Below, piece after piece: positions 2,486 to 29,532 of a stretch of 32,000 nucleotides of DNA. Source of the DNA: Candidatus Scalindua sp. (GTDB lineage: Bacteria; Planctomycetota; Brocadiia; Brocadiales; Scalinduaceae); the NCBI GenBank assembly GCA_031316235.1, contig JALDRA010000001.1:1110001-1142000 (forward strand). Direction: 5' to 3'. How positions within the stretch are numbered: position 1 is the stretch's first letter; the number at the start of each line of letters is the position of its first letter. The position numbers and the translations under genes were made by a program. The notes beneath the pieces are model-generated. The model saw only the letters and a list, made by a program, of their open reading frames with translations, did not search any database and was not told where the DNA came from.

Positions 2486-4120
2486 ATGCTGACACCAAAA
2501 ATGAAATCACTGATCAATCAGCTCTGGGATAATTTCTGGAGCGGCGGGATTGCAAATCCCCTGACGGCAATAGAACAGATTTCGTATCTGTTATTTATGA
2601 GACGGCTCGACGAAGTAGATTTAAAGCTTAAGAAGGACGCTGAATGGACCGGCGAGAAATACACCTCGCTCTTTGACGGCACATTTCAATCACCTCAGAT
2701 GAATAAAAAGATTGATAAACAGACACTCCGCTGGAGCCATTTCAAACAGCTCGAAGGCGGCGAGATGCTTACGCACGTACAGACCGAAGTCTTCCCCTTC
2801 ATCAAGCAGGCTAATGGCAAAGAGAGTGTATTCGCAAAATACATGGCTGATGCCGTCTTCATCATTCCCAAGCCTTCACTCCTGATTGAGGCCGTAACCA
2901 TTATTGACGCGTTGTACGCGGAGATCGAAGGACAGACACAGGCCGGGCAGACATTTCATGACACCCAGGGAGATATGTACGAATTCTTGCTATCTGAGAT
3001 TTCCGCATCCGGTAAAAACGGGCAGTTCCGAACGCCAAGGCATATCATCAAACTCATGTGTGAACTGGTAAGCCCGAAGATTGGCGAGACGATCGGCGAC
3101 CCAGCCTGCGGCACCGGAGGTTTTCTGCTCGGTGCCTATCACTATATCCTGACAACCCATACCACCAAGAAACTTATCACAAAAGATGAAGATGGTTTTG
3201 AGCGCGGTTTTGGCGATAAGCTTACGGATGAACGTTTGTGGACGGCGCTCAGGGAAAAGACCTTTTTCGGCTACGACTTTGATACCACCATGGTGCGTAT
3301 CGGCCTGATGAACCTCCTGCTCCATGGAATCACCCACCCGAATATTGAACGTGTTGATACCCTTTCAAAAAAATATAATGAGGACGATCAGTATGATGTG
3401 ATCCTCGCCAATCCGCCATTTAAGGGCAGTATCGACAAAGGTGATATCAACGAAGGTCTCTCGCTCAAAACGACAAAGACAGAACTCCTCTTCGTGAACC
3501 GCCTGATCAATTCACTGAAAGTAGGCGGACGTGCGTCTGTGATCGTGCCGGACGGAGTGTTATTTGGTTCTTCAAACGCGCATAAGAGTCTGCGGAAGAT
3601 GCTGATTGAAGAGTGCGAGCTGCAGGGTGTTGTCTCCATGCCTTCAGGTGTATTCAAGCCGTACGCCGGGGTCAGCACCGCAATTCTTGTATTCATAAAA
3701 GGCGGCACAACCGAGCGTGTCTGGTTCTACGATATGCAGGCAGACGGCTATTCGCTGGATGATAAACGCGACAGAATAGTGGCAAATGACCTTCCTGACA
3801 TAGTGGAAGAGTGGAATCGTAGGGGCACCGTGCACCGTGCCTGGGAAGGAAACGACCACCCCCATGTCATCCCGGGCGAAGACCCGGGATCCAGGAAGGC
3901 CCGCACAGATGACATTCCCGACTCCGATCGGGAATCCAGAAAAAAGAAACACTTCTTTGTGCCGGTCAATGAAATCATCGACAACAACTATGACCTGAGT
4001 ATCAACCGATATAAAGAGATTGACTATACACCGCCTAAGTATGATAAGCCGGAAGTTATTTTAAGAAACATAAAAAAATTAGAGAAAGAGATTTTTTCTG
4101 ATTTGGAAGAATTAAAGTAG
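2486..4120 (+). CDS. hsdM: Type I restriction-modification system DNA methyltransferase subunit M
   Basis: HsdM-type N-terminus (LWDNFWSGGIANPLTAIEQISYLLFMRRLDE), SAM motif DPACGTGGFLL and catalytic NPPF (ILANPPFKG). The stop lies 2 nt before the hsdS start. Confidence 0.93.
   Translation: MLTPKMKSLINQLWDNFWSGGIANPLTAIEQISYLLFMRRLDEVDLKLKKDAEWTGEKYTSLFDGTFQSPQMNKKIDKQTLRWSHFKQLEGGEMLTHVQTEVFPFIKQANGKESVFAKYMADAVFIIPKPSLLIEAVTIIDALYAEIEGQTQAGQTFHDTQGDMYEFLLSEISASGKNGQFRTPRHIIKLMCELVSPKIGETIGDPACGTGGFLLGAYHYILTTHTTKKLITKDEDGFERGFGDKLTDERLWTALREKTFFGYDFDTTMVRIGLMNLLLHGITHPNIERVDTLSKKYNEDDQYDVILANPPFKGSIDKGDINEGLSLKTTKTELLFVNRLINSLKVGGRASVIVPDGVLFGSSNAHKSLRKMLIEECELQGVVSMPSGVFKPYAGVSTAILVFIKGGTTERVWFYDMQADGYSLDDKRDRIVANDLPDIVEEWNRRGTVHRAWEGNDHPHVIPGEDPGSRKARTDDIPDSDRESRKKKHFFVPVNEIIDNNYDLSINRYKEIDYTPPKYDKPEVILRNIKKLEKEIFSDLEELK
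3866..3939 (+). repeat. Two hairpin repeat units embedded in-frame in hsdM
   Basis: gtcatcccgggcgaagacccgggatccagg and gacattcccgactccgatcgggaatccag. These are the same unit type as families B/C and are translated as VIPGEDPGSR...DIPDSDRESR without breaking the ORF. Confidence 0.65.
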
Positions 4121-4122
4121 AT

Positions 4123-5313
4123 ATGAGAATTAAAGAGGCAATAAAAGATAAAATTACTGGTGAATGGGGCGATGAGGATGACGTTGGTCTTGGAGTGCAG
4201 GTTTTACGAACAACCAATTTCACCAATACTGGACGAATAAGTTATGAAAAAGTTGTTAAGAGAAAAATTTCCAATAGTCTTATTGAAAAGAAGAAGCTTT
4301 TGCCAGGTGATATAATAATAGAAAAATCGGGAGGAAGTCCTAATCAACCAGTAGGACGTGTAGTTTTTTTTGACAATAATAACGAGCTGTTTTTGTGCAA
4401 TAATTTTACCGCTATCTTGCGGCCTTCTGAACGATTAGTTCCAAAATATTTTTTCTATGACTTATTTTACAAGCATTTAAGCCAAGTAACACTGAAGTAT
4501 CAGAATAAGACAACGGGAATTATTAATTTGCAGCTTGATAGGTATTTAGATGAAAAAATTAATGTGCCATCCTTTGATAAACAAAAGCAAATCGTCCAAA
4601 CCCTCGACACAGCCGACACCCTCCTCCAGAAACGCAGAGAACAGCTCAATCTTCTCGATGATTACCTTAAATCCGTCTTTTTCGAAATGTTTGGTGATCC
4701 GGTGCTTAATGATAAGAAATGGGAAACTACATATCTAGATTCTGTAATTGATAGTATAGACAGTGGATGGAGTCCTGTTTGTCTTAATACCCAGAGACGA
4801 TCGGATGAAATCCCTGTTATTTTGAAATTAGGCGCTGTTACTTACTGCTATTTTAATCCGAAAAACCACAAAGTCATTCCTGCGAATATAAAAATAGAAA
4901 AAAGAGTAGAAGTAAAAAAACATGAATTGTTATTTACGAGAAAGAATACAAAAGAGCTTGTTGCTGCTTCAGCATTTATTTTTGATTGTGAAAGAAACTT
5001 GTTATTGCCAGATACAATCTTTCGATTGAATTATAAGAAAGAATTGGTAAATGGGATTTATTTGTGGAAATTGTTTGTTGAAGAAGGATTTCGTAGGGTT
5101 ATACAAAATCTTGCATCTGGCAGTGCTGGTTCAATGCCAAATATATCTAAGGAAAAATTGAGGAAATTATTAATCCCTATTCCTCCATTGCAACTACAAA
5201 ACAAATTCGCTTCAATCGTTGAACAAGTCGAACAAACAAAACAAAAAATGAGCGCGTCATTAGACGAAATGAACAACCACTTCAACGCCCTTATGCAGAG
5301 GTATTTTGGATGA
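4123..5313 (+). CDS. hsdS: Type I restriction-modification system specificity subunit S
   Basis: Two variable TRD halves are separated by the conserved central helix LDTADTLLQKRREQLNLLDDYLKSVFFEMFGDP. The gene ends in the conserved helix KFASIVEQVEQTKQKMSASLDEMNNHFNALMQRYFG and is tightly coupled to hsdM. Confidence 0.9.
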   Translation: MRIKEAIKDKITGEWGDEDDVGLGVQVLRTTNFTNTGRISYEKVVKRKISNSLIEKKKLLPGDIIIEKSGGSPNQPVGRVVFFDNNNELFLCNNFTAILRPSERLVPKYFFYDLFYKHLSQVTLKYQNKTTGIINLQLDRYLDEKINVPSFDKQKQIVQTLDTADTLLQKRREQLNLLDDYLKSVFFEMFGDPVLNDKKWETTYLDSVIDSIDSGWSPVCLNTQRRSDEIPVILKLGAVTYCYFNPKNHKVIPANIKIEKRVEVKKHELLFTRKNTKELVAASAFIFDCERNLLLPDTIFRLNYKKELVNGIYLWKLFVEEGFRRVIQNLASGSAGSMPNISKEKLRKLLIPIPPLQLQNKFASIVEQVEQTKQKMSASLDEMNNHFNALMQRYFG

Positions 5314-5412: not shown

Positions 5413-6165
5413 TTGATGAATAAAGGAATTGAATATCTGAAATTACTTTGGTCAGATCAGTGGAAAACTAAATATGGATTAGTTTTGGCTTCCATTCTAT
5501 TGGCTTTCGTTTCATCTGGTAGTACTATTACAATACTTAAACTATTAAATGTGAAAGAAAAAACATTTTTAATAGTATTATGTGCACTCTTAATGCCACA
5601 ATTGTTACATCTCCTTGTATGGTACTTTTGCTCGGGTAGGATATTTATAACTAATTCGAAATTTACTGTGGTTTTTTGCTTAGCTGGTAAGGATCTACAG
5701 AGTGAAGGAAAGAGTGACAGTTACATTCAAAATGCTATATCAATACTAAAAGGAGAGTTAGAAAAGTTAGGATTATTGGAAAAAATCAATCTAAAGTCAA
5801 TTGGTCAAGATATTATTAAAACAAAAGAAGATGCACTTGATTATAGAGAAAAATATGATATAGATCTTATTATTTGGGGAAAAGTCTATTCTGGTTCAAA
5901 AGAGAAACAAGAAGTATGCGACTTTAAAAAAATATTTTTCACCTGTAAAATGCCTTCCTATATGTTACAAGCCAATCTATCCGACCTTTTTAAAAAAGAT
6001 ATAAATATAGCATTAGTTGGTCGAGATTGGAATATATACGAGGTTAATAGCCTTCCAGATATAGAAAAAATTTCAGGACATCTTAATGAGGTCATAATGT
6101 ATATCTTGGGTATAATTTATTGCCAGTACTATGAATATGCTGAAGATTCTGCCATAATACTTGAA
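5413..6165 (+). pseudogene. N-terminal 251 codons of a membrane/helical-repeat protein gene interrupted by IS copy 1
   Basis: The ORF runs into the IS. The last three pre-insertion codons ata ctt gaa (ILE) are the 9-bp target duplication. Two hydrophobic helices lie near the N-terminus. Confidence 0.75.
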
Positions 6166-6192
6166 GGGTGCATTCCCAATTTATTGTAAAAT

Positions 6193-7611
6193 TTATTTAA
6201 CAATTCGAAGACTTCTCTTAAATTTTTTATTTTTAATTCTTTCCTGGTCGTCCCTTTTGTATTTTTCGATAACTTTATCGTAAGTACCGTTATATTTCGC
6301 GCATCTGATCTTGAGTATGTTATTAGCGTTTTGGATATACCACCAAGCTCCTGATCGTTTAAGCCTTGTATGGCTAATGAATTTATTGGCGCTTTCAATA
6401 GCACCGCTGCCAATGTGATATCCTCCACGCTTGGCGGAACTGTAATCCATCTTTTCACAATGATTTGTGAGATAGGTATAAAACTTGTCAATTTTATCTT
6501 GAATATCTTGAGTTCGGGCTTTCATCTTTCCAAGACCGCCAAGCACCTCTTCATGGTAACCATAATATATTCTTGTCAGAGTCGCCTCACACCACTGTAG
6601 AGACTCTCTTGTCTCTTTTCCGTAATGGGCATTGGCTACACCATGGACATACTCCGAGCAATGGTAATAGTCGAGAATCTCTTTTGCCGAGGGAAATATT
6701 TCTTTACATCGGTTCCAGATCCAGGGAGCACCGTCTCCTATAATTCCCAGGCGTATCTTCTCGTGGGGAATAAGCCCGGCTTCTTTGATCTTAACCAAGT
6801 ATTCTGCTAATTCGTGATCTGCACAAACCTGGTGCCAGCTAATTAAATGAATAATAGTTTGACCATCGATGAGATACAGTCTAAAACCTTTAATCTCTTT
6901 GTATTCTCCCTTGCCTCTTTTCCCTTTACGGGGGTGAGGACTTGGCTCGGGACGCATCGGCCCGTGGGCTCCATCCAGGGCAAGCATCATAATGGGACGA
7001 CGAAACTTATCCACTGAGAGGTTTTCTATCTGCTTATCAATCTCTTCCCTGGGCGGGCAGACATCCAAAATTCCCACTTCTTGACCAATGGCATTCGTGG
7101 TCTCATGCATATGATGTTCACTCAGCTTTACTCCGGTTATTCTCTCGTAGGTTTCGCTGGCCGTCTCATAGGCCGTTTCGCTTGACAACCAGGCTTCCAC
7201 ATCTTGCACATCATATTGCTTCGATGATTCAGACAATCCAAGGGCTTCGTCTAAAGGATAGTATCCTAAACGACACGCTCTGCAATAAAAATAAGGCCTG
7301 GTTAATTCAAATTGTCCGGCAAGGGTTTGGATAGTCTTGGATTGTTTTCCTTGTCTTTGCATACCCTTGCCGCATTCGGGGCAATCGCAGCTTTGCTGAT
7401 TCAATAAATGTCCAAATTTCCTCTCTATGAACCCAAGAATCAGTTGTCCTAATATCTCCGCTCTCTCTTCGAAAACAGCTTTTGAGATTTCTCCTAAATC
7501 TTCCATTGAGTACTCTTCCTCAATCTTATCCAATCGGGTGTCTAAAAAACCATAAAATAAAGCTCTCCAGTTATCGGATGACTCTATCTTTCTTTTCACC
7601 ACACAAGTCAA
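6193..7611 (-). CDS. DDE transposase (layout recalls the ISKra4 family; family assignment unverified)
   Basis: 472 aa. Cys pairs CDCPECG and YCRACR precede candidate DDE-region motifs LALDGAH, IIGDGAPWIWN and ILDYYHCSEYV. The ORF lies inside IR-bounded element ends. Confidence 0.85.
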   Translation of the reverse strand: MTCVVKRKIESSDNWRALFYGFLDTRLDKIEEEYSMEDLGEISKAVFEERAEILGQLILGFIERKFGHLLNQQSCDCPECGKGMQRQGKQSKTIQTLAGQFELTRPYFYCRACRLGYYPLDEALGLSESSKQYDVQDVEAWLSSETAYETASETYERITGVKLSEHHMHETTNAIGQEVGILDVCPPREEIDKQIENLSVDKFRRPIMMLALDGAHGPMRPEPSPHPRKGKRGKGEYKEIKGFRLYLIDGQTIIHLISWHQVCADHELAEYLVKIKEAGLIPHEKIRLGIIGDGAPWIWNRCKEIFPSAKEILDYYHCSEYVHGVANAHYGKETRESLQWCEATLTRIYYGYHEEVLGGLGKMKARTQDIQDKIDKFYTYLTNHCEKMDYSSAKRGGYHIGSGAIESANKFISHTRLKRSGAWWYIQNANNILKIRCAKYNGTYDKVIEKYKRDDQERIKNKKFKRSLRIVK

Positions 7612-7634
7612 AAATACCCCCTTTCAAAAGACTT

Positions 7635-8300
7635 CTATCGCTCCCTGAATACATCTATGGCGAATAGTAACGCCTGACGTTCTAATACAGGCATGGATTT
7701 AAGTTTCGCTGTCCACCTTTTGGTCTTCCTCTTTATCCGTTCCCGCTCACGAAAGTTATTGCCAAGATAACGATAGTCGTGCAGTCCTACCGGAACACTA
7801 TAGTTCATCCATAACCACTCCGTTGCTACGCCATGATGACAGACGGCCTGAAAAGAATGTGTCTGCCAGCTACGCAATGATTCTTTGTATAAGGTTGACT
7901 CGTAACCGGATATCATCACCATGCAGGGAAGAGTTTTCAAAACTTCCAAAAGTTCGATGTGCTGCGCACGGCTATAGTCATATTTATATAGCCGTCCATA
8001 CTTTTTCCTTGTCTCGCGAAGATATGGTGGGTCACAATATACCAGTTCTTTTCCTGTGAAATGATAATTATTCAGATAATTAATTGCGTCATCATGGACC
8101 AGTTCAAAACCTATTGGATGCATATTTGTCCACATCTCAACAACTTCCGAGTCAATTTCTATCCCAAAATTACTCCTGGCAGGTCGTTTGTTCCGTATAA
8201 CAGCGCCACCACCCAAATGAGTCTCTATGTAGACATCATGGGGTGGCATAAGATTGATTAACTTTTGGAATACACCTCCTTTGCCGCCTGGATAATTCAT
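7635..8300 (-). CDS. N6-adenine DNA methyltransferase, D12/Dam-like, passenger gene of the IS
   Basis: N-terminal YPGGKG, SAM-binding-like ETHLGGGAV and catalytic DPPY (VYCDPPYL). It has the same orientation as the transposase and lies 23 nt upstream of it, inside the IRs. Confidence 0.78.
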   Translation of the reverse strand: MNYPGGKGGVFQKLINLMPPHDVYIETHLGGGAVIRNKRPARSNFGIEIDSEVVEMWTNMHPIGFELVHDDAINYLNNYHFTGKELVYCDPPYLRETRKKYGRLYKYDYSRAQHIELLEVLKTLPCMVMISGYESTLYKESLRSWQTHSFQAVCHHGVATEWLWMNYSVPVGLHDYRYLGNNFRERERIKRKTKRWTAKLKSMPVLERQALLFAIDVFRER

Positions 8301-8375
8301 GGAAGAATTATCGTTGAAAACAACGAGGAAGTCAAGATCTTTTATTATATTTTACAAAAAATCGGGAATGCTCCC

Positions 8376-9026
8376 ATACTTGAAAGACTTCTTGAGATCC
8401 TCACTACGCAAACAGCAGGAGAAAGAATTAAGGAAGATAAGGAGAAAAAGTCTGTAAAATTGTCGTCACCAATGTTCCGTAAAGGTCGTATACTTGCAAT
8501 ACTTTTAATTACTTATAAGAAATTGGGTTTTAGTTTTTTTGTTACAAAAAAATATGATAAAAGCTTTTTTTATCTAAATAAATTTATTTCTTATGAGAAA
8601 AAAGACATTGATGCACTTGCAATACTAGCTGAATGTTCTTTCTATTTACGAAATGACATACAAAATTCCAAGATGTACACAGATGAAATAAAAAAAGCTG
8701 ATAAGTATAATGAAATATATCATTTTAATAGCGCTTTTTTTGGTATCTGGAATAAAAACTACCAGAGTGCATTATTCTTTTATAAAGAAACATTAAAACA
8801 GGGAAGGAATATTTCTCCATATATTGTTACGAAAGTAATTGCTTTTTTAGATGAAAGAAAAACAAATAATCCGCAAGAACTTGCTTATGATTTTGCTATT
8901 GGATTCCTTAATTATCATTTTAGTCAAAAAAAAATAGGTAACCGTGAATTAAAGGACTTTGTAAAAAAAGCTAAAAATAAAACTGAATATTATGAAATGG
9001 TAAGTTATGTTAAACAGAACATATAG
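8376..9026 (+). pseudogene. C-terminal 213 codons of the gene interrupted by IS copy 1
   Basis: After the IS, the TSD ata ctt gaa is followed in the same frame by RLLEILTTQ... The listed ORF 8265-9026 begins inside the IS, so its first ~37 codons are IS read-through. Confidence 0.75.
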
Positions 9027-9534: not shown

Positions 9535-10050
9535 GTGATTCGGCTTTATACAGATGAAGACGTACACAAAAAAGTATCCGTAGCACTGCGTACCCGAGGA
9601 TATGATATACCCATTGCAAAATGGTTTTAGGAATTTCTGGGCTGGAGTTTACTTGAAATTTTGATTTTTCGATTGAACAAAACCAGAGGCTTAGTAATAC
9701 TAAGTCGAGGATTTTGAGATTGAGAAAAGTCTAAATTTCATATGAAATCGGGTTCTGAAAACCGAAAATCAATTTGTGATGGGTATATAGTCAGCGTACA
9801 TGATAGTAAGAATTGGGGTCTCTCTGATTTGCAACAGCTGGAATATGCCACATCTCAGAAAAGAGCAATTTTTACGTTCAACACAGGTGACTTTGTAAGA
9901 TTACATAAAGATTACCTTAGCAACAAAAAAAGTCACTTTGGTATTATTCTCTCGAAACAGATTCCTCTTAAAGAAACCATTAATCATCTCATATCTTTTC
10001 TCTACAATCATTCATCAGAACAATTGAAAGACAATATTTTCTGGATATAG
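9535..10050 (+). pseudogene. DUF5615/PIN-like toxin-type gene interrupted by a 174-bp MITE
   Basis: GTG-start VIRLYTDEDVHKKVSVALRTRGYDI (9535-9609) continues in frame at 9790 as VSVHDSKNWGLSDLQQLEYATSQKRAIFTFNTGDF... once 9610-9789 is removed. The start lies directly after the DUF433 stop. Confidence 0.7.
9610..9783. mobile_element. MITE inserted in the DUF5615 gene
   Basis: The ends cccattgcaaaatggtttt and the reverse complement cccatcacaaattgatttt match at about 15/19. TA-rich flanks are duplicated (gatata | tatata). Confidence 0.65.
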
Positions 10051-11560: not shown

Positions 11561-11950
11561 ATGAAAATGGGTAAATCAAAAACAACAGTTATATTCGAAG
11601 AAAAAGGAGAAATTTGTCTGAAGTATATCCATGCACCGGAATATCTATCGTACTCAACGAAGATTATTAAAAAATCTACAGGAAAAAACCCGGTCACAAT
11701 TGAATTAAGTTTTACAGGCATTCCGCCTTGTGCAGCACCGATGCCTCCAGAAGAATATAAAATGTCTGCAGTAGATATTACATCACTTTTTGGTAAAGTA
11801 TACTCATCTCATAATGGTTTTCGGATAAAATCCGAGATAAAATTGAGCGAGTATAACTGCAACCAAGATTTGGTTTCCGGTAAAACCGAAAGCCAAATCG
11901 GTTTTAGTATATCAAAATGGGCAAATAAATACGGCTATAAACTTCATTAA
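11561..11950 (+). CDS. Hypothetical small protein carrying an in-frame MITE insertion
   Basis: MKMGKSKTTVIFEEKGE...SLFGKV [37 MITE-encoded codons] SKWANKYGYKLH*. The insertion is 109 bp plus a 2-bp TSD, 111 bp in total. A deletion derivative lies at 18729-18767. Confidence 0.3.
   Translation: MKMGKSKTTVIFEEKGEICLKYIHAPEYLSYSTKIIKKSTGKNPVTIELSFTGIPPCAAPMPPEEYKMSAVDITSLFGKVYSSHNGFRIKSEIKLSEYNCNQDLVSGKTESQIGFSISKWANKYGYKLH
11801..11909 (+). mobile_element. MITE family A (TA-duplicating), copy 1
   Basis: tactcatctcataatggttttcggataaaatccgagataaaattgagcgagtata...ccggtaaaaccgaaagccaaatcggttttagta flanked by ta/ta. The ends TACT...TGGTTTTCGG are inverted. Confidence 0.75.
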
Positions 11951-15452: not shown

Positions 15453-15520
15453 TTTGTGCCTGCTGTGCCCCTCTTACCTTAAGTTTAATAGAAAAGTTAT
15501 ACCATCCAGGTTTTCTATTA

Positions 15521-15644
15521 TATCCACCTCATGATGGTTTTCGGATAAAATTGAGCGAGTAAAGTCCTCGGCGCTTTTTGTCCGGGGATACCAGCAACCA
15601 GGATTTGCTTTCCGGTAAAACCGAAAACCAAATCGGTTTTAGTA
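15521..15644 (+). mobile_element. MITE family A, copy 2 (long variant)
   Basis: tatccacctcatgatggttttcggataaaattgagcgagtaaagtcctcggcg...ccggtaaaaccgaaaaccaaatcggttttagta flanked by ta/ta. It shares the extra segment aagtcctcggcg..gtccgggga with the copy at 24542. Confidence 0.7.
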
Positions 15645-15681
15645 TAGTAGGCGCTTTACCCTCTTATTGATAAGGAGAAAA

Positions 15682-19101: not shown

Positions 19102-22071
19102 TTACACTGACCTGGAAAGGCGAAAGCCAACGAAGTTGCCGCGGGCGCCGGGCCCGAGGCCGCCCCGGAGCGCCGACCGGCAGCGCTGCGCATCGTCGCC
19201 CCAGCTGCCGCCGCGAATCACACGGAAGGAGCCTCTCGGTTTATCGGTCCATGCCTTTCCGTCATTGGGTGCCCCCTTGTAATCACCGTGCCAGTCGTCC
19301 TCCACCCATTCATACACGTTTCCATGCATATCATAAAGACCGAAGGCGTTCGGCTCTTTTTCTCCAACAGGATGAAGCAGTTCTCCCGAATTCTTATCAT
19401 ACCATCCCACTCGATCCAGGTCTTTTTCTGCGTCACCATTACAGTAACGAGTCTTACCCCCCGCACGGCAGGCATACTCCCATTCTGCCTCGCTCGGTAG
19501 CCGTAGCCCAGTCCATTCTGCATACCGTACGGCGTCATCCCAGCTCACCCCTACTACCGGCTGACGCGGCTGGTTGAATTGCCGGTCGGCCCAGTACTTC
19601 GGTTCCTTAACCTCTGGATTCTCCTTGAGAAACCGTCCATACTCCTCATTGGTCACGGGGTAACGCCCCAGATAAAAATCCTGAATCTGTACCTGATGGA
19701 CAGGTCCTTCTGCTTCAGATCTCCCCTTCTCCCGATCCGGAGATCCCATGGTAAATACTCCACCAGGTATTTTCACGAGCTCGTATCCACCGGGTTCGGA
19801 TACGATGACATCCTGACCGGCCTGCACTGCACGCTCCTCTATCCAGCCACGAATCTTTTGTGAAGGGTGTTTTTTGAGATGTGCTTCCCGATTATGAACT
19901 GCCTCAGGATCAAGCCGTTCCAGCACACGGAGAGCCACGAGCTGACGTTCCCATAACTCTTCGTCCTTTCCCGGCTCAGTTTCCAGAAGTTCTATGAATG
20001 GTTTCGTTGATGTCTCTGCCGCGTCATCCAGAGAGGCTTCAATCAATTCTGTATATTCTGCAAACGCGGGTTGTTTTACCACCTCGCGCAGGTAAGGAAC
20101 AAAGAGGGAGGGGTCTTCAAGGGCCAGTAAGATAAGTCCCACCTCCTGCCACCAGCTCTCGCCGAAGTGTGAGGCAAGCTCTCGTAATACACCCTCATCA
20201 TGAAATGCCCGCGTTCGTATCTCACGGGCGGCAAGATATTCCTGGAAACCGAGGTGCATAAAACCATACTCTTCAGGATTCCAACCTGTCAGGAGCCCGC
20301 TTTCGTCACGAACGGTATTGAGAAACTCTCTGGCAGTGCCACCTGACCATTGTACCGATCTGAGAACAGGTTCTATGATCGGAATGAGTTCAGAATACTC
20401 TGCCCGCGTACGTCCCTCCTTTCCATGCAGCCACAATGCAACCGGTTGAAGCACACGCATCCCGTCTCGGGCAGTTACACCAACAGAGAGTCCTTTTGCC
20501 TCACGCCAGTGTTCGAGGAGAACGTTTACACACTCTTCATAGAGGCACGCCCTCTTCTTCGGAAGGGCGCCCCGGTGGCGATGGACGAGACAGATATTTG
20601 CAAGGAGGAGCGGGTTGCGGGTAAGCTCAAACACCCTTCTTGCCCTGAAATCGGGCTCCTTCAGACGGTTGATAAGACTCTCGGCTTTTTCTGCAGCAAT
20701 CACCGTTGCCTGATCAGTATCTCTGGCAAGGCCCCTTTCTACAATCGTGTACCAGTTCCGGATAAATCGTGCTACCTGGTCTTCCGTAAGCGGCCGGATG
20801 TGCATCTCAAGAAACTCCTCGCCTAACTGAACAGTCGGGCTGTATCCCGCGAAACGGCATGTCACGACAAAACGACACGCACTATGAACGCGAATGGCTT
20901 CTGTTATCCAGCCTGCGACCTTCTCACGTCCGGCAAGGTCGGCAACTTCGTCGAGTCCGTCCAGGAGGAAGAGCAGATTTTGTCTCTCCAGGAGACGTCT
21001 GCCAAAGCCTTTGGAGGTATTAAGGTGGGCGCCCTGGAGCTGTTCCTCGATGAAGGCGTCAAGCCCCTGATCAAGACTCTTTAACTGACGCAGGGGTAAA
21101 AACACCGGGATCATATCATGGGGAAGGCCTATCGTCTCCTGATCTTTTCTCAGACACCAGAGGAGCAGCCTCTTTAAGTGGGTGGTCTTTCCTGACCCCG
21201 GATCTCCAAGGATAACAATGCCCCGCTGCCTGCGATTTCCGGATTGACGGAATGCCTCCAGAAGTGAGATCTCCAGTCCGGCATCCTGACCTCTCAGTCT
21301 TTTTTCGGCATGCTCCGCGTCCCGGAAAAAATCCTCCCTGACGCCCTGGAGGTTGACCATGGCTCGCAGGGGCACATACATCTCTTCAAGGTCAATGGGC
21401 ACCTTGATCTGCATGGCAAAACCTGCAACCGGCAGGTTTTCGTGCAGGGCCTCCGCCTTCCGGCAATAGGAGAGGATCTCCTTATCCGTTTGCAGTTCTG
21501 GTGGAGAAACTTCCTCTCCGGCCTGGAGGTGTCTCTCTTTTCCGGAAACTTCTTCTCTCTTCGCCCGCCATTTGTTCAGTGAGTCCAACACCTTTGCGCC
21601 AAGGGTGGTTTCGTTAAAGACTGCAGGTATTTGATCCCGCGATATTTTTTGCTTGAAGGCTTCCAGTTTTTCCTGTTTTTTCCACTTATCTGACCCTTCA
21701 TCATAATCTTTCTGCTGATTCACCGGAAGTTCAGGGTCAATGAGGAACATCAGCCGCTCTTTTACAGCATCATATTCCATCTCGGTAATGGATTTCATAC
21801 CATCCGGTTCCCATCCGTATCGATGAGCAATGATGCCTACGAGGACGTCCGCTTCCCTTGCGTGGCGCAGGCATTCTTCCACAACAGGTCTGGTTGAGGC
21901 CTCAAAGAATTCCATCCCATGCCATACCATTCCCGCCATCGTAATGGAGTCTTCAACCGTTCTCCGCCTCTCTTTATTATCGAGAAAAGTACTTGAAACG
22001 AATACCTTGTAACTCTTACCTGAACTTTTCGATACGGATTTTTTCTTGCCGGCCATTTCGCCTTCTCCCAC
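19102..22071 (-). CDS. STAND NTPase: DUF4062 (TIR-like) - NACHT - helical region - FGE/SUMF1 domain
   Basis: N-terminus KVFVSSTFLDNKERRRTVEDSI...ADVLVGIIAHRYGWEP (DUF4062). Walker A GDPGSGKTT and Walker B LLFLLDGLDEV (NACHT). The C-terminal ~260 aa contain YPVTNEEY, VGVSWDDAVRYAEW, EAEWEYACRAG, HGNVYEWVED and RGGSW...GFRLSRS (FGE-sulfatase fold). Confidence 0.88.
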   Translation of the reverse strand: MGEGEMAGKKKSVSKSSGKSYKVFVSSTFLDNKERRRTVEDSITMAGMVWHGMEFFEASTRPVVEECLRHAREADVLVGIIAHRYGWEPDGMKSITEMEYDAVKERLMFLIDPELPVNQQKDYDEGSDKWKKQEKLEAFKQKISRDQIPAVFNETTLGAKVLDSLNKWRAKREEVSGKERHLQAGEEVSPPELQTDKEILSYCRKAEALHENLPVAGFAMQIKVPIDLEEMYVPLRAMVNLQGVREDFFRDAEHAEKRLRGQDAGLEISLLEAFRQSGNRRQRGIVILGDPGSGKTTHLKRLLLWCLRKDQETIGLPHDMIPVFLPLRQLKSLDQGLDAFIEEQLQGAHLNTSKGFGRRLLERQNLLFLLDGLDEVADLAGREKVAGWITEAIRVHSACRFVVTCRFAGYSPTVQLGEEFLEMHIRPLTEDQVARFIRNWYTIVERGLARDTDQATVIAAEKAESLINRLKEPDFRARRVFELTRNPLLLANICLVHRHRGALPKKRACLYEECVNVLLEHWREAKGLSVGVTARDGMRVLQPVALWLHGKEGRTRAEYSELIPIIEPVLRSVQWSGGTAREFLNTVRDESGLLTGWNPEEYGFMHLGFQEYLAAREIRTRAFHDEGVLRELASHFGESWWQEVGLILLALEDPSLFVPYLREVVKQPAFAEYTELIEASLDDAAETSTKPFIELLETEPGKDEELWERQLVALRVLERLDPEAVHNREAHLKKHPSQKIRGWIEERAVQAGQDVIVSEPGGYELVKIPGGVFTMGSPDREKGRSEAEGPVHQVQIQDFYLGRYPVTNEEYGRFLKENPEVKEPKYWADRQFNQPRQPVVGVSWDDAVRYAEWTGLRLPSEAEWEYACRAGGKTRYCNGDAEKDLDRVGWYDKNSGELLHPVGEKEPNAFGLYDMHGNVYEWVEDDWHGDYKGAPNDGKAWTDKPRGSFRVIRGGSWGDDAQRCRSALRGGLGPGARGNFVGFRLSRSV

Positions 22072-22540: not shown

Positions 22541-22776
22541 GGTGTCAGCGTTTGAACGGAAACCCTCTGTTTGAACGAAAACTGCCCAGGTATACTCATT
22601 TCATAATGGTTTTCGGATAAAATCCGAGAAAAAACGGAGCGAGTATACCTTCACCAAGATTTGGTTTTAGCATACAAGGCGCGTAATAATTACGTAACCG
22701 GAGCGTACTCAAGTACGTGAGGATTACGTCATTATTGCAGCAACGCCGTAGATGGGTAGTTTTCGTTCAAACACTA
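22541..22776. repeat. Family E palindromic element, copy 2 (inverted), interrupted by a MITE A
   Basis: The reverse complement aligns with 28194-28313 and 1833-1989. It is continuous except for 22593-22672. Its end supplies the last codons and stop of umuC. Confidence 0.65.
22593..22672 (+). mobile_element. MITE family A, copy 3 (80-bp short variant) nested in element E
   Basis: tactcatttcataatggttttcggataaaatccgag...caccaagatttggttttagca flanked by ta/ta. The uninterrupted site is visible in E copy 3 (cccagatacaagg, reverse complement of 28286-28298). Confidence 0.7.
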
Positions 22777-24059
22777 ATTATGAGGAGATCTTCCCACTTA
22801 CTCGTATATGCCGGTGAAAGCATCGATCTCCTCATCTTCCATCTCTGCCGTATCCCCTCCGCCGCCAGTCTCAGGCTCCCCCTCCCCCATCTTCTGTTTA
22901 TCCTGTCCACTGTCTCCATGAGTTTTTCCTCCCGTTCTCTCCCCGCATAATCAAGGGAGCTGAAGAGGTGTAACTGTATCAGGCTATCCGTCTGGATCCC
23001 TTCCAGGAGAATACCGGCTTTTTTGTACCGATATCCCGGTTTATATATCTTACCCAGCCCCTGCAGCGCATGCCTTGTCAGATCGATGGTATTTGCCGTA
23101 GGCTCCTTCAGCCTGATATGGAGAGAATTTGCATATTGTGGCTCATCTCTTTTAAACTTATTCGTTTTAATATAGACAATCAGTATATTGGCGCAGGAGT
23201 TCTGGCTCCTGAGCTTTTCAGCCGCCCTGCTTACGTATGAGGCTACCGCCTCCTCCAGCTCCTCCCGCGTAGCAACAGGCTTTCCAAAAGAACGGGAACT
23301 GCGGATCCCTTTTTTGGGCATGGGGTATCGATCCAATCCAAAACAGGGGATTCCCCTCAACTCAAGGACGCATCGTTCGCCCATTACGGTCATTCTCTTG
23401 CGTACCCATTCCATATCCGCATACTTTAGATCCCTTGCCGTCTTAATCCCCTGTCCCCGCAGCAGCTTCGCATACTGATGACCAACACCCCACACATCCT
23501 CAACCCCGAGCTGCTCAAGGTAAAAGTCGATTTCCCTCCCCGGGCCCTTACTCAGATCCACAACTCCTCCGTATCGGGGATGTTTCTTCGCTATCTCATT
23601 GGCAACTTTTGTCAGGGTCTTCGTCTGTGCAATACCAACCGACACCGATATCCCCGTCCACTTCATTACCGTCTGCCGAATTCCCCTTCCGCATGCAGCA
23701 TAATCTTCACACCGTAGTCCCGTAAGAGAAAGAAAGGCCTCATCGATAGAGTAGATCTCGATATCGGGCGTAAACTGTTTCAACGTCTCCATCACCCTGC
23801 GTGACATGTCGGCATAAAGCGAATAGTTTGAAGAGAACACCCTGATCTTGTGCCTCTTAATCATGTTGTCACACTGAAAAACAGGGATCCCCATCCTGAT
23901 ACCAAGGGCCTTCACCTCGTTTGACCGTGCAACAACGCAACCATCGTTGTTAGAGAGTACCATTACGGGAATGGCTGCAAGCGCCGGATCAAACACCCTC
24001 TCACAGGAAACGTAAAAATTGTTACAATCCACCAGCGCCAAAACCGTGTCCTGTCTCAT
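22767..24059 (-). CDS. umuC: Y-family translesion DNA polymerase, UmuC type
   Basis: N-terminal [21 protein letters not shown]...[21 protein letters not shown] is the UmuC signature. It overlaps the umuD stop by 4 nt. Confidence 0.9.
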
Positions 24060-24533: not shown

Positions 24534-24541
24534 TCAAGTTA

Positions 24542-24849
24542 TACTCAGCTCATAATAGTTTTCGGATAAAACCCGAGATAAAATTGAGCGAGTAAAGTCC
24601 TCGGCGTCTGGTCCGGGGATACCTTCACCAGGATTTAGTTTTCAATAAAACCCAGTAATGTCCGGTTAGGTTTTTGCATATTTAATTTATTTCCCCAAAA
24701 CTGTCATTCCCGCATGTTTTTAGCGGGAATCTATGATGAAACGAGTCTCTTGATACCCGATAAAGTCGCTCGGGTATGACAAAAGCCGCCTACGCAAAAA
24801 CCTAACCGGACACTGTTGAGTAAAACCGAAAACCAAATCGGTTTTAGTA
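24542..24849 (+). mobile_element. MITE family A, copy 4, carrying a nested family B MITE
   Basis: The left end tactcagctcataatagttttcgg... and right end ...gtaaaaccgaaaaccaaatcggttttagta are flanked by ta/ta. The interior is interrupted at 24653-24820. Confidence 0.7.
24653..24820. mobile_element. MITE family B, copy nested inside MITE A
   Basis: 168 bp. Near-perfect ~20-bp TIR tgtccggttaggtttttgc / gcaaaaacctaaccggaca. The 7-bp TSD taaaacc lies at 24646-24652 and 24821-24827. Confidence 0.75.
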
Positions 24850-24983
24850 TAGATTTCTCGACTCTGCCCGCCCACCTGACCACTCTTTCGGACAGGGAAT
24901 GATGTCACTGTGAATGCTCACAACTACCGCATATTTGGCAAAAATCCGATGTATAGCAAACATGAAAATACTTGAAAATTAAC

Positions 24984-25278: not shown

Positions 25279-25370
25279 TTATAATCTCCCGCCCTCAATA
25301 CTCCTTATCAATTCTGGGTTGTCATTTGTTGGGGAGTTTACCTCATTTGAGACAATATACACATCCATAT
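25279..25370 (-). pseudogene. Detached 3' end (last 30 codons) of the SRAP gene
   Basis: The reverse strand, after removing one TSD copy, reads ...DDDMD|VYIVSNEVNSPTNDNPELIRSIEGGRL*. This is a typical SRAP/YedK C-terminus. Confidence 0.8.
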
Positions 25371-25397
25371 GGGTGCATTCCCAATTTATTGTAAAAT

Positions 25398-26816
25398 TTA
25401 TTTAACAATTCGAAGACTTCTCTTAAATTTTTTATTTTTAATTCTTTCCTGGTCGTCCCTTTTGTATTTTTCGATAACTTTATCGTAAGTACCGTTATAT
25501 TTCGCGCATCTGATCTTGAGTATGTTATTAGCGTTTTGGATATACCACCAAGCTCCTGATCGTTTAAGCCTTGTATGGCTAATGAATTTATTGGCGCTTT
25601 CAATAGCACCGCTGCCAATGTGATATCCTCCACGCTTGGCGGAACTGTAATCCATCTTTTCACAATGATTTGTGAGATAGGTATAAAACTTGTCAATTTT
25701 ATCTTGAATATCTTGAGTTCGGGCTTTCATCTTTCCAAGACCGCCAAGCACCTCTTCATGGTAACCATAATATATTCTTGTCAGAGTCGCCTCACACCAC
25801 TGTAGAGACTCTCTTGTCTCTTTTCCGTAATGGGCATTGGCTACACCATGGACATACTCCGAGCAATGGTAATAGTCGAGAATCTCTTTTGCCGAGGGAA
25901 ATATTTCTTTACATCGGTTCCAGATCCAGGGAGCACCGTCTCCTATAATTCCCAGGCGTATCTTCTCGTGGGGAATAAGCCCGGCTTCTTTGATCTTAAC
26001 CAAGTATTCTGCTAATTCGTGATCTGCACAAACCTGGTGCCAGCTAATTAAATGAATAATAGTTTGACCATCGATGAGATACAGTCTAAAACCTTTAATC
26101 TCTTTGTATTCTCCCTTGCCTCTTTTCCCTTTACGGGGGTGAGGACTTGGCTCGGGACGCATCGGCCCGTGGGCTCCATCCAGGGCAAGCATCATAATGG
26201 GACGACGAAACTTATCCACTGAGAGGTTTTCTATCTGCTTATCAATCTCTTCCCTGGGCGGGCAGACATCCAAAATTCCCACTTCTTGACCAATGGCATT
26301 CGTGGTCTCATGCATATGATGTTCACTCAGCTTTACTCCGGTTATTCTCTCGTAGGTTTCGCTGGCCGTCTCATAGGCCGTTTCGCTTGACAACCAGGCT
26401 TCCACATCTTGCACATCATATTGCTTCGATGATTCAGACAATCCAAGGGCTTCGTCTAAAGGATAGTATCCTAAACGACACGCTCTGCAATAAAAATAAG
26501 GCCTGGTTAATTCAAATTGTCCGGCAAGGGTTTGGATAGTCTTGGATTGTTTTCCTTGTCTTTGCATACCCTTGCCGCATTCGGGGCAATCGCAGCTTTG
26601 CTGATTCAATAAATGTCCAAATTTCCTCTCTATGAACCCAAGAATCAGTTGTCCTAATATCTCCGCTCTCTCTTCGAAAACAGCTTTTGAGATTTCTCCT
26701 AAATCTTCCATTGAGTACTCTTCCTCAATCTTATCCAATCGGGTGTCTAAAAAACCATAAAATAAAGCTCTCCAGTTATCGGATGACTCTATCTTTCTTT
26801 TCACCACACAAGTCAA
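25398..26816 (-). CDS. DDE transposase, identical to 6193-7611
   Basis: The 472-aa translation is identical. Confidence 0.85.
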   Translation of the reverse strand: MTCVVKRKIESSDNWRALFYGFLDTRLDKIEEEYSMEDLGEISKAVFEERAEILGQLILGFIERKFGHLLNQQSCDCPECGKGMQRQGKQSKTIQTLAGQFELTRPYFYCRACRLGYYPLDEALGLSESSKQYDVQDVEAWLSSETAYETASETYERITGVKLSEHHMHETTNAIGQEVGILDVCPPREEIDKQIENLSVDKFRRPIMMLALDGAHGPMRPEPSPHPRKGKRGKGEYKEIKGFRLYLIDGQTIIHLISWHQVCADHELAEYLVKIKEAGLIPHEKIRLGIIGDGAPWIWNRCKEIFPSAKEILDYYHCSEYVHGVANAHYGKETRESLQWCEATLTRIYYGYHEEVLGGLGKMKARTQDIQDKIDKFYTYLTNHCEKMDYSSAKRGGYHIGSGAIESANKFISHTRLKRSGAWWYIQNANNILKIRCAKYNGTYDKVIEKYKRDDQERIKNKKFKRSLRIVK

Positions 26817-26839
26817 AAATACCCCCTTTCAAAAGACTT

Positions 26840-27505
26840 CTATCGCTCCCTGAATACATCTATGGCGAATAGTAACGCCTGACGTTCTAATACAGGCATG
26901 GATTTAAGTTTCGCTGTCCACCTTTTGGTCTTCCTCTTTATCCGTTCCCGCTCACGAAAGTTATTGCCAAGATAACGATAGTCGTGCAGTCCTACCGGAA
27001 CACTATAGTTCATCCATAACCACTCCGTTGCTACGCCATGATGACAGACGGCCTGAAAAGAATGTGTCTGCCAGCTACGCAATGATTCTTTGTATAAGGT
27101 TGACTCGTAACCGGATATCATCACCATGCAGGGAAGAGTTTTCAAAACTTCCAAAAGTTCGATGTGCTGCGCACGGCTATAGTCATATTTATATAGCCGT
27201 CCATACTTTTTCCTTGTCTCGCGAAGATATGGTGGGTCACAATATACCAGTTCTTTTCCTGTGAAATGATAATTATTCAGATAATTAATTGCGTCATCAT
27301 GGACCAGTTCAAAACCTATTGGATGCATATTTGTCCACATCTCAACAACTTCCGAGTCAATTTCTATCCCAAAATTACTCCTGGCAGGTCGTTTGTTCCG
27401 TATAACAGCGCCACCACCCAAATGAGTCTCTATGTAGACATCATGGGGTGGCATAAGATTGATTAACTTTTGGAATACACCTCCTTTGCCGCCTGGATAA
27501 TTCAT
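26840..27505 (-). CDS. Dam-like N6-adenine DNA methyltransferase, identical to 7635-8300
   Basis: The 221-aa translation is identical. Confidence 0.78.
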   Translation of the reverse strand: MNYPGGKGGVFQKLINLMPPHDVYIETHLGGGAVIRNKRPARSNFGIEIDSEVVEMWTNMHPIGFELVHDDAINYLNNYHFTGKELVYCDPPYLRETRKKYGRLYKYDYSRAQHIELLEVLKTLPCMVMISGYESTLYKESLRSWQTHSFQAVCHHGVATEWLWMNYSVPVGLHDYRYLGNNFRERERIKRKTKRWTAKLKSMPVLERQALLFAIDVFRER

Positions 27506-27580
27506 GGAAGAATTATCGTTGAAAACAACGAGGAAGTCAAGATCTTTTATTATATTTTACAAAAAATCGGGAATGCTCCC

Positions 27581-28187
27581 CATCCATATCATCATCAGGG
27601 TAGGGCCTTAACATCGCCATGAGCGCGTCACTATTCAGCTCAGGAGAACCCACCCCCAGCCATGCATCTTCACACTCCTGCCGCAGGATTACGGGCATCC
27701 TGTCATGAATGGGCCGCAGGGTCATATTGGATTCGGTTGTAATGATGGTGAATGTCTTGAGTTCACTCCCTTCACCATCTCTCCAGATATCATAGAGCCC
27801 TGCGAAGGAGAAGATCTCCCTATTTTTCAGTTTGATATAGTGAGGGAGTTTACTTTTCGCAACCCTCTTCCACTCATAGAAACCTGAACTCGGTACTAAA
27901 CATCTCTTCGACTTAAGGATATGTCTGAATGAGGGTTTTGTGTCCAGTGTCTCTGCCCGTGCATTAATCATCCGGTTTCCTATCTTGGGATCCTTTGCCC
28001 AGAAAGGCACCAGCCCCCACCTCATCATCTCCAGCACACGTCCTTTTTCCCTGTTAAGATATATTACAGGCGTATGTTGTGATGGTGCAATATTATAGCG
28101 CGGTCCGATCGTGAGATCCTCAGAAATGAGCACCCTGTATTGAGAAAAAACAGCATCGATGTCTGTAAGCGCAAATCTTCCACACAT
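27581..28187 (-). pseudogene. SOS response-associated peptidase (SRAP/YedK family), 3'-truncated by IS copy 2
   Basis: MCGRFALTD... The catalytic Cys must be residue 2, so the ATG at 28187 is the real start rather than the TTG at 28193. The ORF reads into the IS after ...PYPDDDMD. The reconstructed gene is 229 aa. Confidence 0.85.
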
Positions 28188-28193
28188 GGTCAA

Positions 28194-28313
28194 GTTAAAC
28201 GAAAACTACCCACCTACTGCGTTGCTGTAATCATTTCGTAATCCTCACGTACTTGAGTACGCTCCGGTTCCGAAATGATTACGCGCCTTGTATCTGGGCA
28301 GTTTTAGTTCAAC
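28194..28313. repeat. Family E palindromic element, copy 3
   Basis: gttaaacgaaaactaccca ... tgggcagttttagttcaac are complementary arms with the inner stem gtaatcatttcg/cgaaatgattac. It begins 7 nt upstream of the SRAP ATG. Confidence 0.65.
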
Positions 28314-28894: not shown

Positions 28895-29259
28895 TTACTG
28901 TAATTTATTGACTACCCGGAAAATCCCTTCTCGTAATACCTCAACATGAAAATTGATTATTAAACCTAAATTTTTATCACCAAGTCGTAAATATGTCAAC
29001 AGTTTCGGTTTGTCTATCGTTGATAATTCCTCTTTAGCTTTCAAATCTACTATTACCTTATCTTCTACTAATAAGTCTAAGCGAAGATCTGTGCCGAGTT
29101 TGATTCCTTTATAAGGAATTGGTACACTCTGTTGTCTTTTAAATTGCACTCCTCTCAGGTGTAACTCATGGCAAAGCGCATCTTCATAGACAGATTCCAA
29201 AAGTCCCGGTCCTAAAATACGATGTACTTCTATTGCGGAGCCTATTATCTTCTCTGATA
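28895..29259 (-). CDS. GxxExxY protein (PD-(D/E)XK-like family); native start separated by a MITE
   Basis: ...EKIIGSAIEVHRILGPGLLESVYEDALCHEL... contains the GxxExxY signature. The native start MHENE (ATG at 29385) is cut off by the 110-bp insertion, which shifts the frame. The listed ORF start at 29299 is a TTG inside the MITE. Confidence 0.7.
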
Positions 29260-29367
29260 TACTAAAACCGATTTGGTTTTCGGTTTTACCGGAAACCAAA
29301 TCTTGGTGAAGGTATACTCGCTCAATTTTATCTCGGATTTTATCCGAAAACCATTATGAGATGAGTA
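29260..29367 (-). mobile_element. MITE family A, copy 5 (inverted), inserted in the 5' end of the GxxExxY gene
   Basis: tactaaaaccgatttggttttcgg...ccattatgagatgagta flanked by ta (29258-29259) and ta (29368-29369). The empty allele of the same site is at 25166-25178. Confidence 0.8.
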
Positions 29368-29532
29368 TATCTCGTTTTCATGCATAACGAACAACGTCTT
29401 TCCTATTTCACATCAGTCTTTACAACCCTCTCTGCGACCTCTGCGCCTCTGCGTTAAAAGAAAAGACTAAAATTCTTAATTTACAGAGGTTCAAAGAGGT
29501 TAAGGACCTTTCGGACAGGCAGACCGGCCTAT

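Follow-up and report, generated by a model that had tools for sequence, protein, structure and literature searches.

An ISKra4-family element of Candidatus Scalindua carries a promoter-methylase cassette shared with insertion sequences of unrelated families

The usual picture of an insertion sequence (IS) is that of a transposase gene with a repeat on either side. Here we analyze a 32,000-nt stretch of Candidatus Scalindua sp. (assembly GCA_031316235.1, contig JALDRA010000001.1, positions 1,110,001 to 1,142,000 of the forward strand; hereafter the window, to which coordinates refer) that holds two copies of an IS encoding, besides its transposase, a protein resembling Dam DNA methyltransferases. 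Copy 1 (6166-8375) and copy 2 (25371-27580) are both 2,210 bp long with 0 mismatches, their genes lie on the minus strand, and the identity between them breaks off precisely at the element ends (6166/8375; 25371/27580). The termini are 27-bp imperfect inverted repeats (IRs), GGG-ended and identical at 24 of 27 positions: in copy 1, GGGTGCATTCCCAATTTATTGTAAAAT at the transposase end (IRR, 6166-6192, plus strand) and GGGAGCATTCCCGATTTTTTGTAAAAT at the methylase end (IRL, 8349-8375, minus strand). The window has four instances of this IR pattern, with 0 expected from shuffles. Each copy is flanked by its own 9-bp target-site duplication, atacttgaa for copy 1 (6157-6165 and 8376-8384) and catccatat for copy 2 (25362-25370 and 27581-27589). 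Removing the element and one duplication in silico restored a 473-codon open frame at the first site and a 229-aa SRAP / SOS-response-associated peptidase (PF02586, 251 bits) at the second. The original prediction, made from the DNA letters, of a recently active IS in two identical copies, each interrupting an open reading frame (ORF), was accurate in every detail that we checked. One 4.15-Mb contig has five records of an identical transposase, so that the element is multi-copy in its source genome, beyond the two copies in the window. The outer end of IRL (GGGAGCATTCCC then GATTTTTTG; 8363-8376 and 27568-27581, minus strand) scores as a short hairpin followed by a T-run, which might stop read-through from flanking genes into the element. 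A scan of the window against Rfam gave nothing over gathering scores.

Only two ORFs are found in the element. The one next to IRR (6193-7611, minus strand) encodes a 472-aa transposase starting at TTG, with an AGGGGG Shine-Dalgarno sequence 5 nt before it; a 469-aa version with a GTG start is also on record. It matches NF033572, the curated ISKra4 model, at 241.5 bits against a cut-off of 205 (protein residues 32-443, model positions 15-421 of 422), as well as PF06782 (UPF0236) at 50.7 bits against 24.3, and has 3,534 relatives. Together with the GGG-starting IRs and 9-bp duplication, both ISKra4 traits in the ISfinder family table, these matches bear out the family assignment of the original prediction, and the element is a new member of ISKra4. 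This family corresponds to the p-MULT 4 group of Guerillot et al. 2014 (PMC3942029), who noted additional genes, of unknown function, in four ISKra4 elements; the supplement of that paper has no methylase annotation for ISKra4 elements, and a further source (PMC9296519) gives ISKra4 copy counts only.

The second gene (7635-8300, minus strand) encodes a 221-aa Dam-fold (D12) methyltransferase-like protein, hereafter the methylase. As predicted, it lies upstream of the transposase on the same strand in an operon-like layout, and the 23-nt spacer between its stop and the transposase start (7612-7634, minus strand) holds the transposase ribosome-binding site. The corresponding parts of copy 2 are an IR at 25371-25397, the transposase at 25398-26816, the methylase at 26840-27505, the promoter described below at 27512-27541 and the other IR at 27554-27580. 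The methylase contains the motifs YPGGK, HLGGGAV and DPPY and matches PF02086 at 35.8 bits (gathering score 22), with residues 83-148 only in the alignment. Its AlphaFold (AF2) model (predicted local distance difference test, pLDDT, 77.5) consists of a Rossmann methyltransferase core and a basic two-helix C-terminal hairpin (residues 183-220). Among PDB structures, the model comes closest to E. coli Dam, T4 Dam and DpnM (E 4e-9 to 1e-6), with a template modeling (TM) score of only ~0.53 because the target-recognition domain of these enzymes is absent from the modeled protein. Longer homologues offered no candidate for such a domain, as their inserts near residue 62 are of low complexity and unconserved. 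Searches of PDB sequences with the methylase, and with the unclassified transposase of a locus surveyed below (L020), returned no matches. The Dam family models were missed (TIGR00571, 42.4 against a cut-off of 114.85; NF008152, 15.9 against 441) and, on sequence grounds, the protein is not a Dam orthologue. It shares catalytic fold, motifs and carriage on mobile elements with the orphan D12 methylases known from phages and plasmids (T4 Dam, P1 Dam, DpnM-like; PF02086), and differs from them in being 221 aa long, in lacking the Dam-type recognition domain and in giving no indication of GATC specificity. No nuclease ORF appears in the ORF list of the element and no nuclease gene lies beside the methylase, which upholds the predicted D12/Dam-like protein without a cognate nuclease and speaks against a restriction-modification pair; the type I hsdM and hsdS genes adjacent to copy 1 are outside the IRs and unrelated.

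Across 17 diverse members of the methylase family, including phage forms and the plasmid protein Upf31 discussed below, D90-P91-P92-Y93, E26 and G30/G32 are invariant, and G31 is kept in at least 90%. The C-terminal residues R186, E207 and R208 are also invariant, invariant positions besides DPPY and the glycine-rich S-adenosylmethionine (SAM) loop number ~35, and the alignment, Upf31 included, runs without large gaps. Within ISKra4 lineages the methylase has a ratio of nonsynonymous to synonymous substitution rates (dN/dS) of 0.11-0.24 and the transposase one of 0.12-0.16, and the two genes are similar in dS. The methylase is thus under purifying selection that resembles that on the transposase.

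Directly before the methylase gene lies a promoter match (8307-8336, minus strand) made of a C-TTGACT -35 box (8335-8330), a 17-nt spacer and a GATAAT -10 box (8312-8307), followed after 6 nt by the ATG (8300). Of all promoter matches within the element, this near-consensus sigma-70 promoter scores best (10/12), and its pattern is found twice in the window against 0.02 expected. Its spacer contains the dyad TCGTTG-TTTT-CAACGA (8311-8326, minus strand), a candidate operator that overlaps the -10 box. The same layout, cTTGACAt-N17-GATAAT followed by 6 nt (occasionally 5 or 7) and ATG, is common to 45 unique sequences from at least seven IS families. As the 6 nt between -10 box and ATG leave no room for a ribosome-binding site, a leaderless mRNA is predicted. 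These 45 sequences conserve more than a plain promoter needs, namely C-36, T-29, TC at -26/-25 and G-12 (44/45). The dyad has a core of TC-N12-GA, with TC at -26/-25 and GA at -12/-11 near-invariant, and this core is extended in individual lineages, for example to the dyad given above in the window and to ATTATCGC-N8-GCGATAAT at locus L085. Of 67 unique promoters, 33 have complementary bases at positions -24 and -13, where 21.5 would be expected (0/2000 shuffles), a test that is inflated by kinship among the sequences.

Two other candidate control sites were rejected. The original prediction had suggested Dam-like control by methylation of the IRs, in the style of IS10 and IS50; this did not hold, given that neither IR contains GATC, that the GATC beside the -35 box is not conserved, being absent from loci L083, L084 and L003, and that TIGR00571 stays below its cut-off. 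A possible second operator, CGATAAnnTTATCG, near the 3' end of the transposase gene (element positions 2096-2109) falls within codons (YDKVIE) and recurs in relative L169, which has no methylase.

Relatives of the methylase number in the thousands and have a very wide taxonomic spread; most are on contigs of 2-3 kb, the form in which collapsed assembly repeats appear. Our survey took in 80 loci of species genomes and 80 of metagenomes, with methylase similarity as the sole basis of choice. A methylase at least 64% identical to that of the window was present at 100 loci, and at 83 of them the next gene downstream, in the same orientation, encodes a transposase; the remainder include five with transposase fragments, detected by hidden Markov model (HMM) only, and five whose contigs end too soon to tell. 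A methylase downstream of the transposase or on the opposite strand was never found in the loci surveyed. Only the closest relatives have an ISKra4 transposase behind the methylase. Elsewhere the partner belongs to IS66 (NF033517, 223-226 bits), ISL3 (NF033550, 256 bits), IS1634 (NF033559, 236 bits), IS4 (NF033592, 186 bits) or IS630 (NF033545, 124 bits), or is ISAs1-like (a DDE_Tnp_1_assoc protein, below cut-off); one further partner is an unclassified DDE protein. The hosts span many bacterial phyla and possibly archaea, with the proviso that many loci are short contigs in bins of metagenome-assembled genomes (MAGs), where host assignment may be wrong, especially for the archaeal ones (Thermoplasmata, ANME-1, Heimdall, Altiarchaeota). 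One such locus, a 2.9-kb contig binned as ANME-1 (L008), has two methylase genes in tandem (1-513, 1601-2269), and the closed 5.16-Mb chromosome of a Thermoplasmata MAG has a truncated cassette only, with its promoter intact (L035, 5001-5417).

In several of these families the methylase lies inside the boundaries of a mobile element. IS66-type elements of a Longimicrobiales MAG are 2,277 bp long and present in at least nine copies at 99% identity, with the IR GTAACTACTCACCCC and 8-bp duplications, and others on an alphaproteobacterial chromosome are ~2,455 bp long and present in at least five copies; both enclose the methylase. So do the IRs of an ISL3-type multi-copy element (IR GGCTCAACCGGAACTG, 8-bp duplications) and of an ISAs1-like multi-copy element (IR CAGCAATTCTCGGTGA, 9-bp duplication), as well as the 30-bp IRs of an IS630-type element, for which no target duplication was identified. 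The IS66 elements with the cassette (L056, 4846-7122; L079, 4662-7116; L105, 233-3241) have the large DDE transposase (tnpC-type) only, without the usual tnpA and tnpB, and the methylase cassette fills that upstream position. In an IS66-linked sub-group (L099, L103-L105, L109, L111, L122, L142, L160 and similar) the ORF starts with ATGAATTTTCCA, the TTGACATTATC...TTGATA promoter is kept but lies ~60 nt upstream, and an AGGAG ribosome-binding site has been gained. As far as these sequences tell, such cassettes are a leadered variant of the leaderless design.

Between families, DNA homology (~70%) is confined to the interval from -37/-48 to +634/+646 relative to the methylase ATG, while the IRs and transposases of different families have nothing in common. 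These limits define a cassette of ~0.7 kb that consists of promoter and ORF. A methylation or binding motif common to the IRs was sought across IS families and rejected, as the IRs are unrelated (GGGAGCATTCCC, GTAACTACTCACC, GGCTCAACCGG, CAGCAATTCTCGG, CTAGTACCTCT). In a neighbor-joining tree of the methylases, all IS-borne types fall in one clade in which partner families are interleaved: IS66 is polyphyletic, and the IS4 type falls inside ISL3. Another clade linked to IS66, independent of the first, stands among phage-type sequences. The interleaving implies that the cassette has been exchanged repeatedly.

The original prediction described the methylase as passenger cargo of the element. 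In its plainest form, this would make the gene a neutral or host-beneficial hitch-hiker, captured by chance and without a role in IS biology. Such genes have precedents, as methyltransferases are a listed class of IS passenger gene in the paraphrase that PMC7232470 gives of the category, and four ISKra4 elements have extra genes of unknown function (Guerillot et al. 2014); the cassette is, moreover, dispensable for ISKra4 transposition. A chance passenger does not account for a gene that recurs in at least seven families, always upstream and on the same strand (83/100 loci), with its own conserved promoter, under purifying selection comparable to that on the transposase, and with partner families interleaved in its tree. 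Plain cargo is strongly disfavored by this cross-family census, and we regard it as very improbable. Gene and promoter together are a conserved cassette upstream of the transposase in at least seven unrelated IS families, so that the passenger description does not stand; judged by its distribution, the cassette behaves like an accessory or regulatory module.

The cassette is not a fixed part of ISKra4 elements. Transposases 59-70% identical to that of the window sit in elements of 1.6-1.9 kb with GGGAGCAT(A/T)CCC ends and no methylase, and the transposase-only relatives L165 and L169 have GGGAGCAT(A/T)CCCAAATTGTTG at both ends, the IR type seen at IRR; one relative with a 65% identical transposase does carry the methylase. 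The original prediction had treated the methylase as belonging to the element. This holds for the sub-lineage of the window, with the qualification that related ISKra4 elements with the same IR type do without it, which makes the cassette optional and exchangeable. The window element is thus a typical ISKra4 member in its curated transposase model, GGG-ended IRs, 9-bp duplication and IR type, and its sub-lineage differs by the cassette of promoter and Dam-fold gene, common to other IS families, between IRL and transposase. No description of such an arrangement was found in the ISKra4 literature searched.

A more intimate role would be that of a transposition co-factor, which marks donor or target DNA by methylation (for target immunity, or to tell old from newly replicated DNA) or loads or modulates the transposase at the ends. 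The linkage to the transposase is tight, with stop and start codons that sometimes overlap in the ISAs1-like type, and the similar dS of both genes within ISKra4 lineages fits such a partnership, for which host Dam control of IS10/IS50 end activity is a precedent. The cross-family data make it difficult to sustain: the partner transposases are unrelated and the IRs have no common motif, so that one protein is unlikely to recognize all ends or enzymes; the cassette is the sole DNA common to the families; and transposase-only relatives with the same IRs exist. We consider this role quite unlikely, if less so than plain cargo.

Outside the IS-borne clade, the methylase has relatives on plasmids and phages. 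The closest counterpart with experimental data is Upf31, the product of upf31.0, a backbone gene of IncP-1 plasmids, which is 55% identical over residues 1-212 (96% of length). Upf31-type relatives occur in 179 plasmid records, 129 of them conjugative. Methylases of P2-like Salmonella phages are 47% identical to the window protein, and 65 relatives are found on viral contigs, all below 57% identity; none of these 65 has a transposase beside it, and viral contigs yielded no member of the IS-borne clade (at least 64% identity).

Upf31 of pBP136 (IncP-1 beta) showed no Dam-type GATC methylation and, in methylase-free E. coli, no modification detectable by sequencing single molecules in real time (SMRT) (bioRxiv 10.1101/2024.02.05.579024). 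The same study found that Upf31 represses its own promoter ~50-fold (4.76 to 0.09 XylE units), proposed an inverted CAGCATCG repeat as its operator and predicted that its C-terminal domain dimerizes. From the cloning description in that paper, the vector used for SMRT appears to have carried the ORF only, with the native operator missing as a substrate. When we compared promoters (window TTGACTTCCTCGTTGTTTTCAACGATAAT, pBP136 TTGACAGCATCGCCATTTCTGACGAGACT), both genes were found to have their own promoter with a dyad across spacer and -10 box; the pBP136 promoter cCTTGACAGCATCGCCATTTCTGACGAGACT has the layout of the IS cassettes, with its dyad at the equivalent position. Upf31 and the window protein are thus alike in all methyltransferase motifs, in the C-terminal helices and in the promoter layout TTGACAgCATCG...CGAgACT with a dyad over spacer and -10 box. 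Upf31 differs in being a leadered plasmid backbone gene without a downstream transposase, within the KorB regulatory network.

A further group of relatives is chromosomal (Proteobacteria, Acidobacteriota; 38-53% identity) and is followed by an ORF of 275-283 aa resembling HhH/Ogg glycosylases (L029, L030-L032, L036, L038, L039, L048-L050, L052, L064). Past this ORF, the opposite strand carries a QueC-like gene and a fusion of PfkB kinase and nucleoside-2-deoxyribosyltransferase. Of these genes only the QueC-like one matches a PADLOC model; the glycosylase-like and kinase/deoxyribosyltransferase genes match none. The group may represent an undescribed DNA-modification or defense cluster.

These relatives bear on whether the protein is a protective orphan methylase, that is, an active N6-adenine DNA methyltransferase that acts on a short motif throughout the host genome or the carrier replicon and shields the vehicles of the IS (plasmids, phages, chromosomes) from restriction-type nucleases or glycosylases, which would widen the spread of the IS. 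Its catalytic and SAM-binding motifs are invariant family-wide in a gene under purifying selection, PADLOC scores it as a Type II methyltransferase (Type II MTase), and it is very widespread. Relatives at 40-56% identity sit where anti-restriction methylases usually do, on the 129 conjugative plasmids, in P2-like phages and on the 65 viral contigs, and the proteobacterial ones are paired with the glycosylase-like gene of a possible modification or defense cluster. Nevertheless, Upf31 yielded neither GATC methylation nor an SMRT motif, the protein has no recognizable target-recognition domain, and an IS is unable to protect incoming DNA before it is expressed. The absence of the IS-borne clade from viral contigs also counts against this role, and the fixed same-strand position upstream of the transposase and the operator-like promoter would be left unexplained. 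Genome-wide protection therefore seems to us unlikely, albeit a stronger contender than either a co-factor or plain cargo.

The model that best accommodates these observations is a self-repressing promoter-methylase module that would govern expression of the transposase; we hold it tentatively, at somewhat less than an even chance. The promoter would drive a leaderless methylase-transposase operon, and the 221-aa protein, which probably dimerizes through its basic C-terminal helical hairpin, would turn off its own promoter by binding the dyad that overlaps spacer and -10 box. Transposase output would then be self-limiting, lower per copy as copies accumulate, and independent of host factors, a property that would suit an element moving between phyla. 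Conservation of promoter and dyad, the position of the cassette across families, selection on the gene, autorepression by Upf31 and the C-terminal hairpin all argue for such a module.

As the catalytic residues are all invariant, the protein may do more than bind DNA. More speculatively, an adenine of the operator or of the -10 box (GATAAT) could be methylated by it as well, which would link re-expression to passage of the replication fork, as host Dam does for IS10, with the difference that the enzyme would be supplied by the element. The cassette would then be a portable ~0.7-kb "transposition governor," captured and exchanged repeatedly by unrelated DDE ISs, whose product both binds and N6-methylates its own -10/operator adenine, providing host-independent, replication-coupled and copy-number-sensing control of the transposase. 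This extended form is doubtful, and clearly less probable than self-repression as such.

Several points weigh against self-repression as the function of the cassette. The regulatory role is carried over from a single plasmid homologue, Upf31, which acts in a KorB-dependent setting, and the invariant DPPY and SAM motifs would be superfluous for a pure repressor. The dyad core common to the lineages is short (ATCG..CGAT), and the covariation test is inflated by related sequences. A weak promoter-like site (7940-7912) lies inside the element upstream of the transposase, and promoter-like matches are no more frequent in the element than in shuffles, so that obligatory co-transcription of the two genes is only putative. 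Finally, transposase-only ISKra4 relatives transpose without the cassette.

Control of transposition by adenine methylation is known from IS10, IS50 and IS903, which are regulated by host Dam; there, the methylase belongs to the host and its site is GATC. The likeness to the cassette is conceptual: where an N6-adenine methylase has a site over the promoter of the transposase, expression could be tied to replication. In the cassette the enzyme-like gene is IS-borne, GATC is conserved in neither IRs nor promoter, and no Dam orthologue is involved. The nearest parallel in kind is TnpB/IscB, the accessory genes of IS200/IS605 and IS607 that encode an RNA-guided RuvC nuclease. TnpB/IscB is the one accessory gene well known from more than one IS family, and as an RNA-guided nuclease it is of major interest both biologically and technically. 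Like the methylase, TnpB/IscB is a single accessory gene that accompanies unrelated transposases, is optional for transposition and has been exchanged between families (for its distribution, see PMC3627910). The window protein differs in having a SAM-dependent methyltransferase fold, lying upstream and bringing its own promoter, and its partners are DDE transposases of at least seven families. A full-text literature search, with ISfinder and TnPedia outside it, returned no description of a Dam-like cassette common to IS families.

The cassette therefore points to a second cross-family IS module, a Dam-fold protein with its own promoter that is represented by thousands of metagenomic sequences and joined to at least seven DDE families. 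If the protein does bind and N6-methylate its own promoter, it would parallel TnpB, as a methylase, in the role of accessory gene to ISs of several families. A switch that represses or methylates its own promoter would show how ISs can hold transposase expression low, independently of the host and across phyla, and would give a function to a large family annotated as "DNA adenine methylase," including the IncP-1 protein Upf31, that failed methylation tests. It would also offer a compact, leaderless and autoregulated expression cassette for broad-host-range use. Were the protein a genome-wide methylase instead, ISs would be unrecognized spreaders of epigenetic marks and anti-restriction functions.

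The two copies in the window lie in different surroundings. Copy 1 sits in a 464-aa ORF (5413-9026) that has no family match and is directly downstream of the type I genes hsdM (2486-4120) and hsdS (4123-5313); no hsdR was found among the large ORFs of the window. Copy 2 splits the SRAP (YedK-like) gene (25343-28193), ~1.2 kb from a Y-family polymerase gene (22767-24059; PF00817/IMS_C/DUF4113), and its insertion may have disabled an SOS or translesion gene pair formed by the two. The window also encodes a 989-aa protein (19102-22071, minus strand) with DUF4062, NACHT/STAND NTPase and FGE-sulfatase domains, and this protein together with the type I genes suggests that the window lies in a defense or variable island. 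Intergenic repeats of several families matched no Rfam family; they are 30-120 nt long, present in both orientations and have hairpin-forming cores (e.g., GGTTTTCGGATAAAATCCGAGA, AAAACCGAAAACCAAATCGGTTTT, GTCATTCCCGC...GCGGGAATC). These repeats, at 925-1007, 1691-1773, 9606-9788, 11798-11914, 15519-15647, 22568-22776, 24537-24852, 28192-28312 and 29255-29372, look like miniature inverted-repeat transposable elements (MITEs) or repetitive extragenic palindromic (REP) elements.

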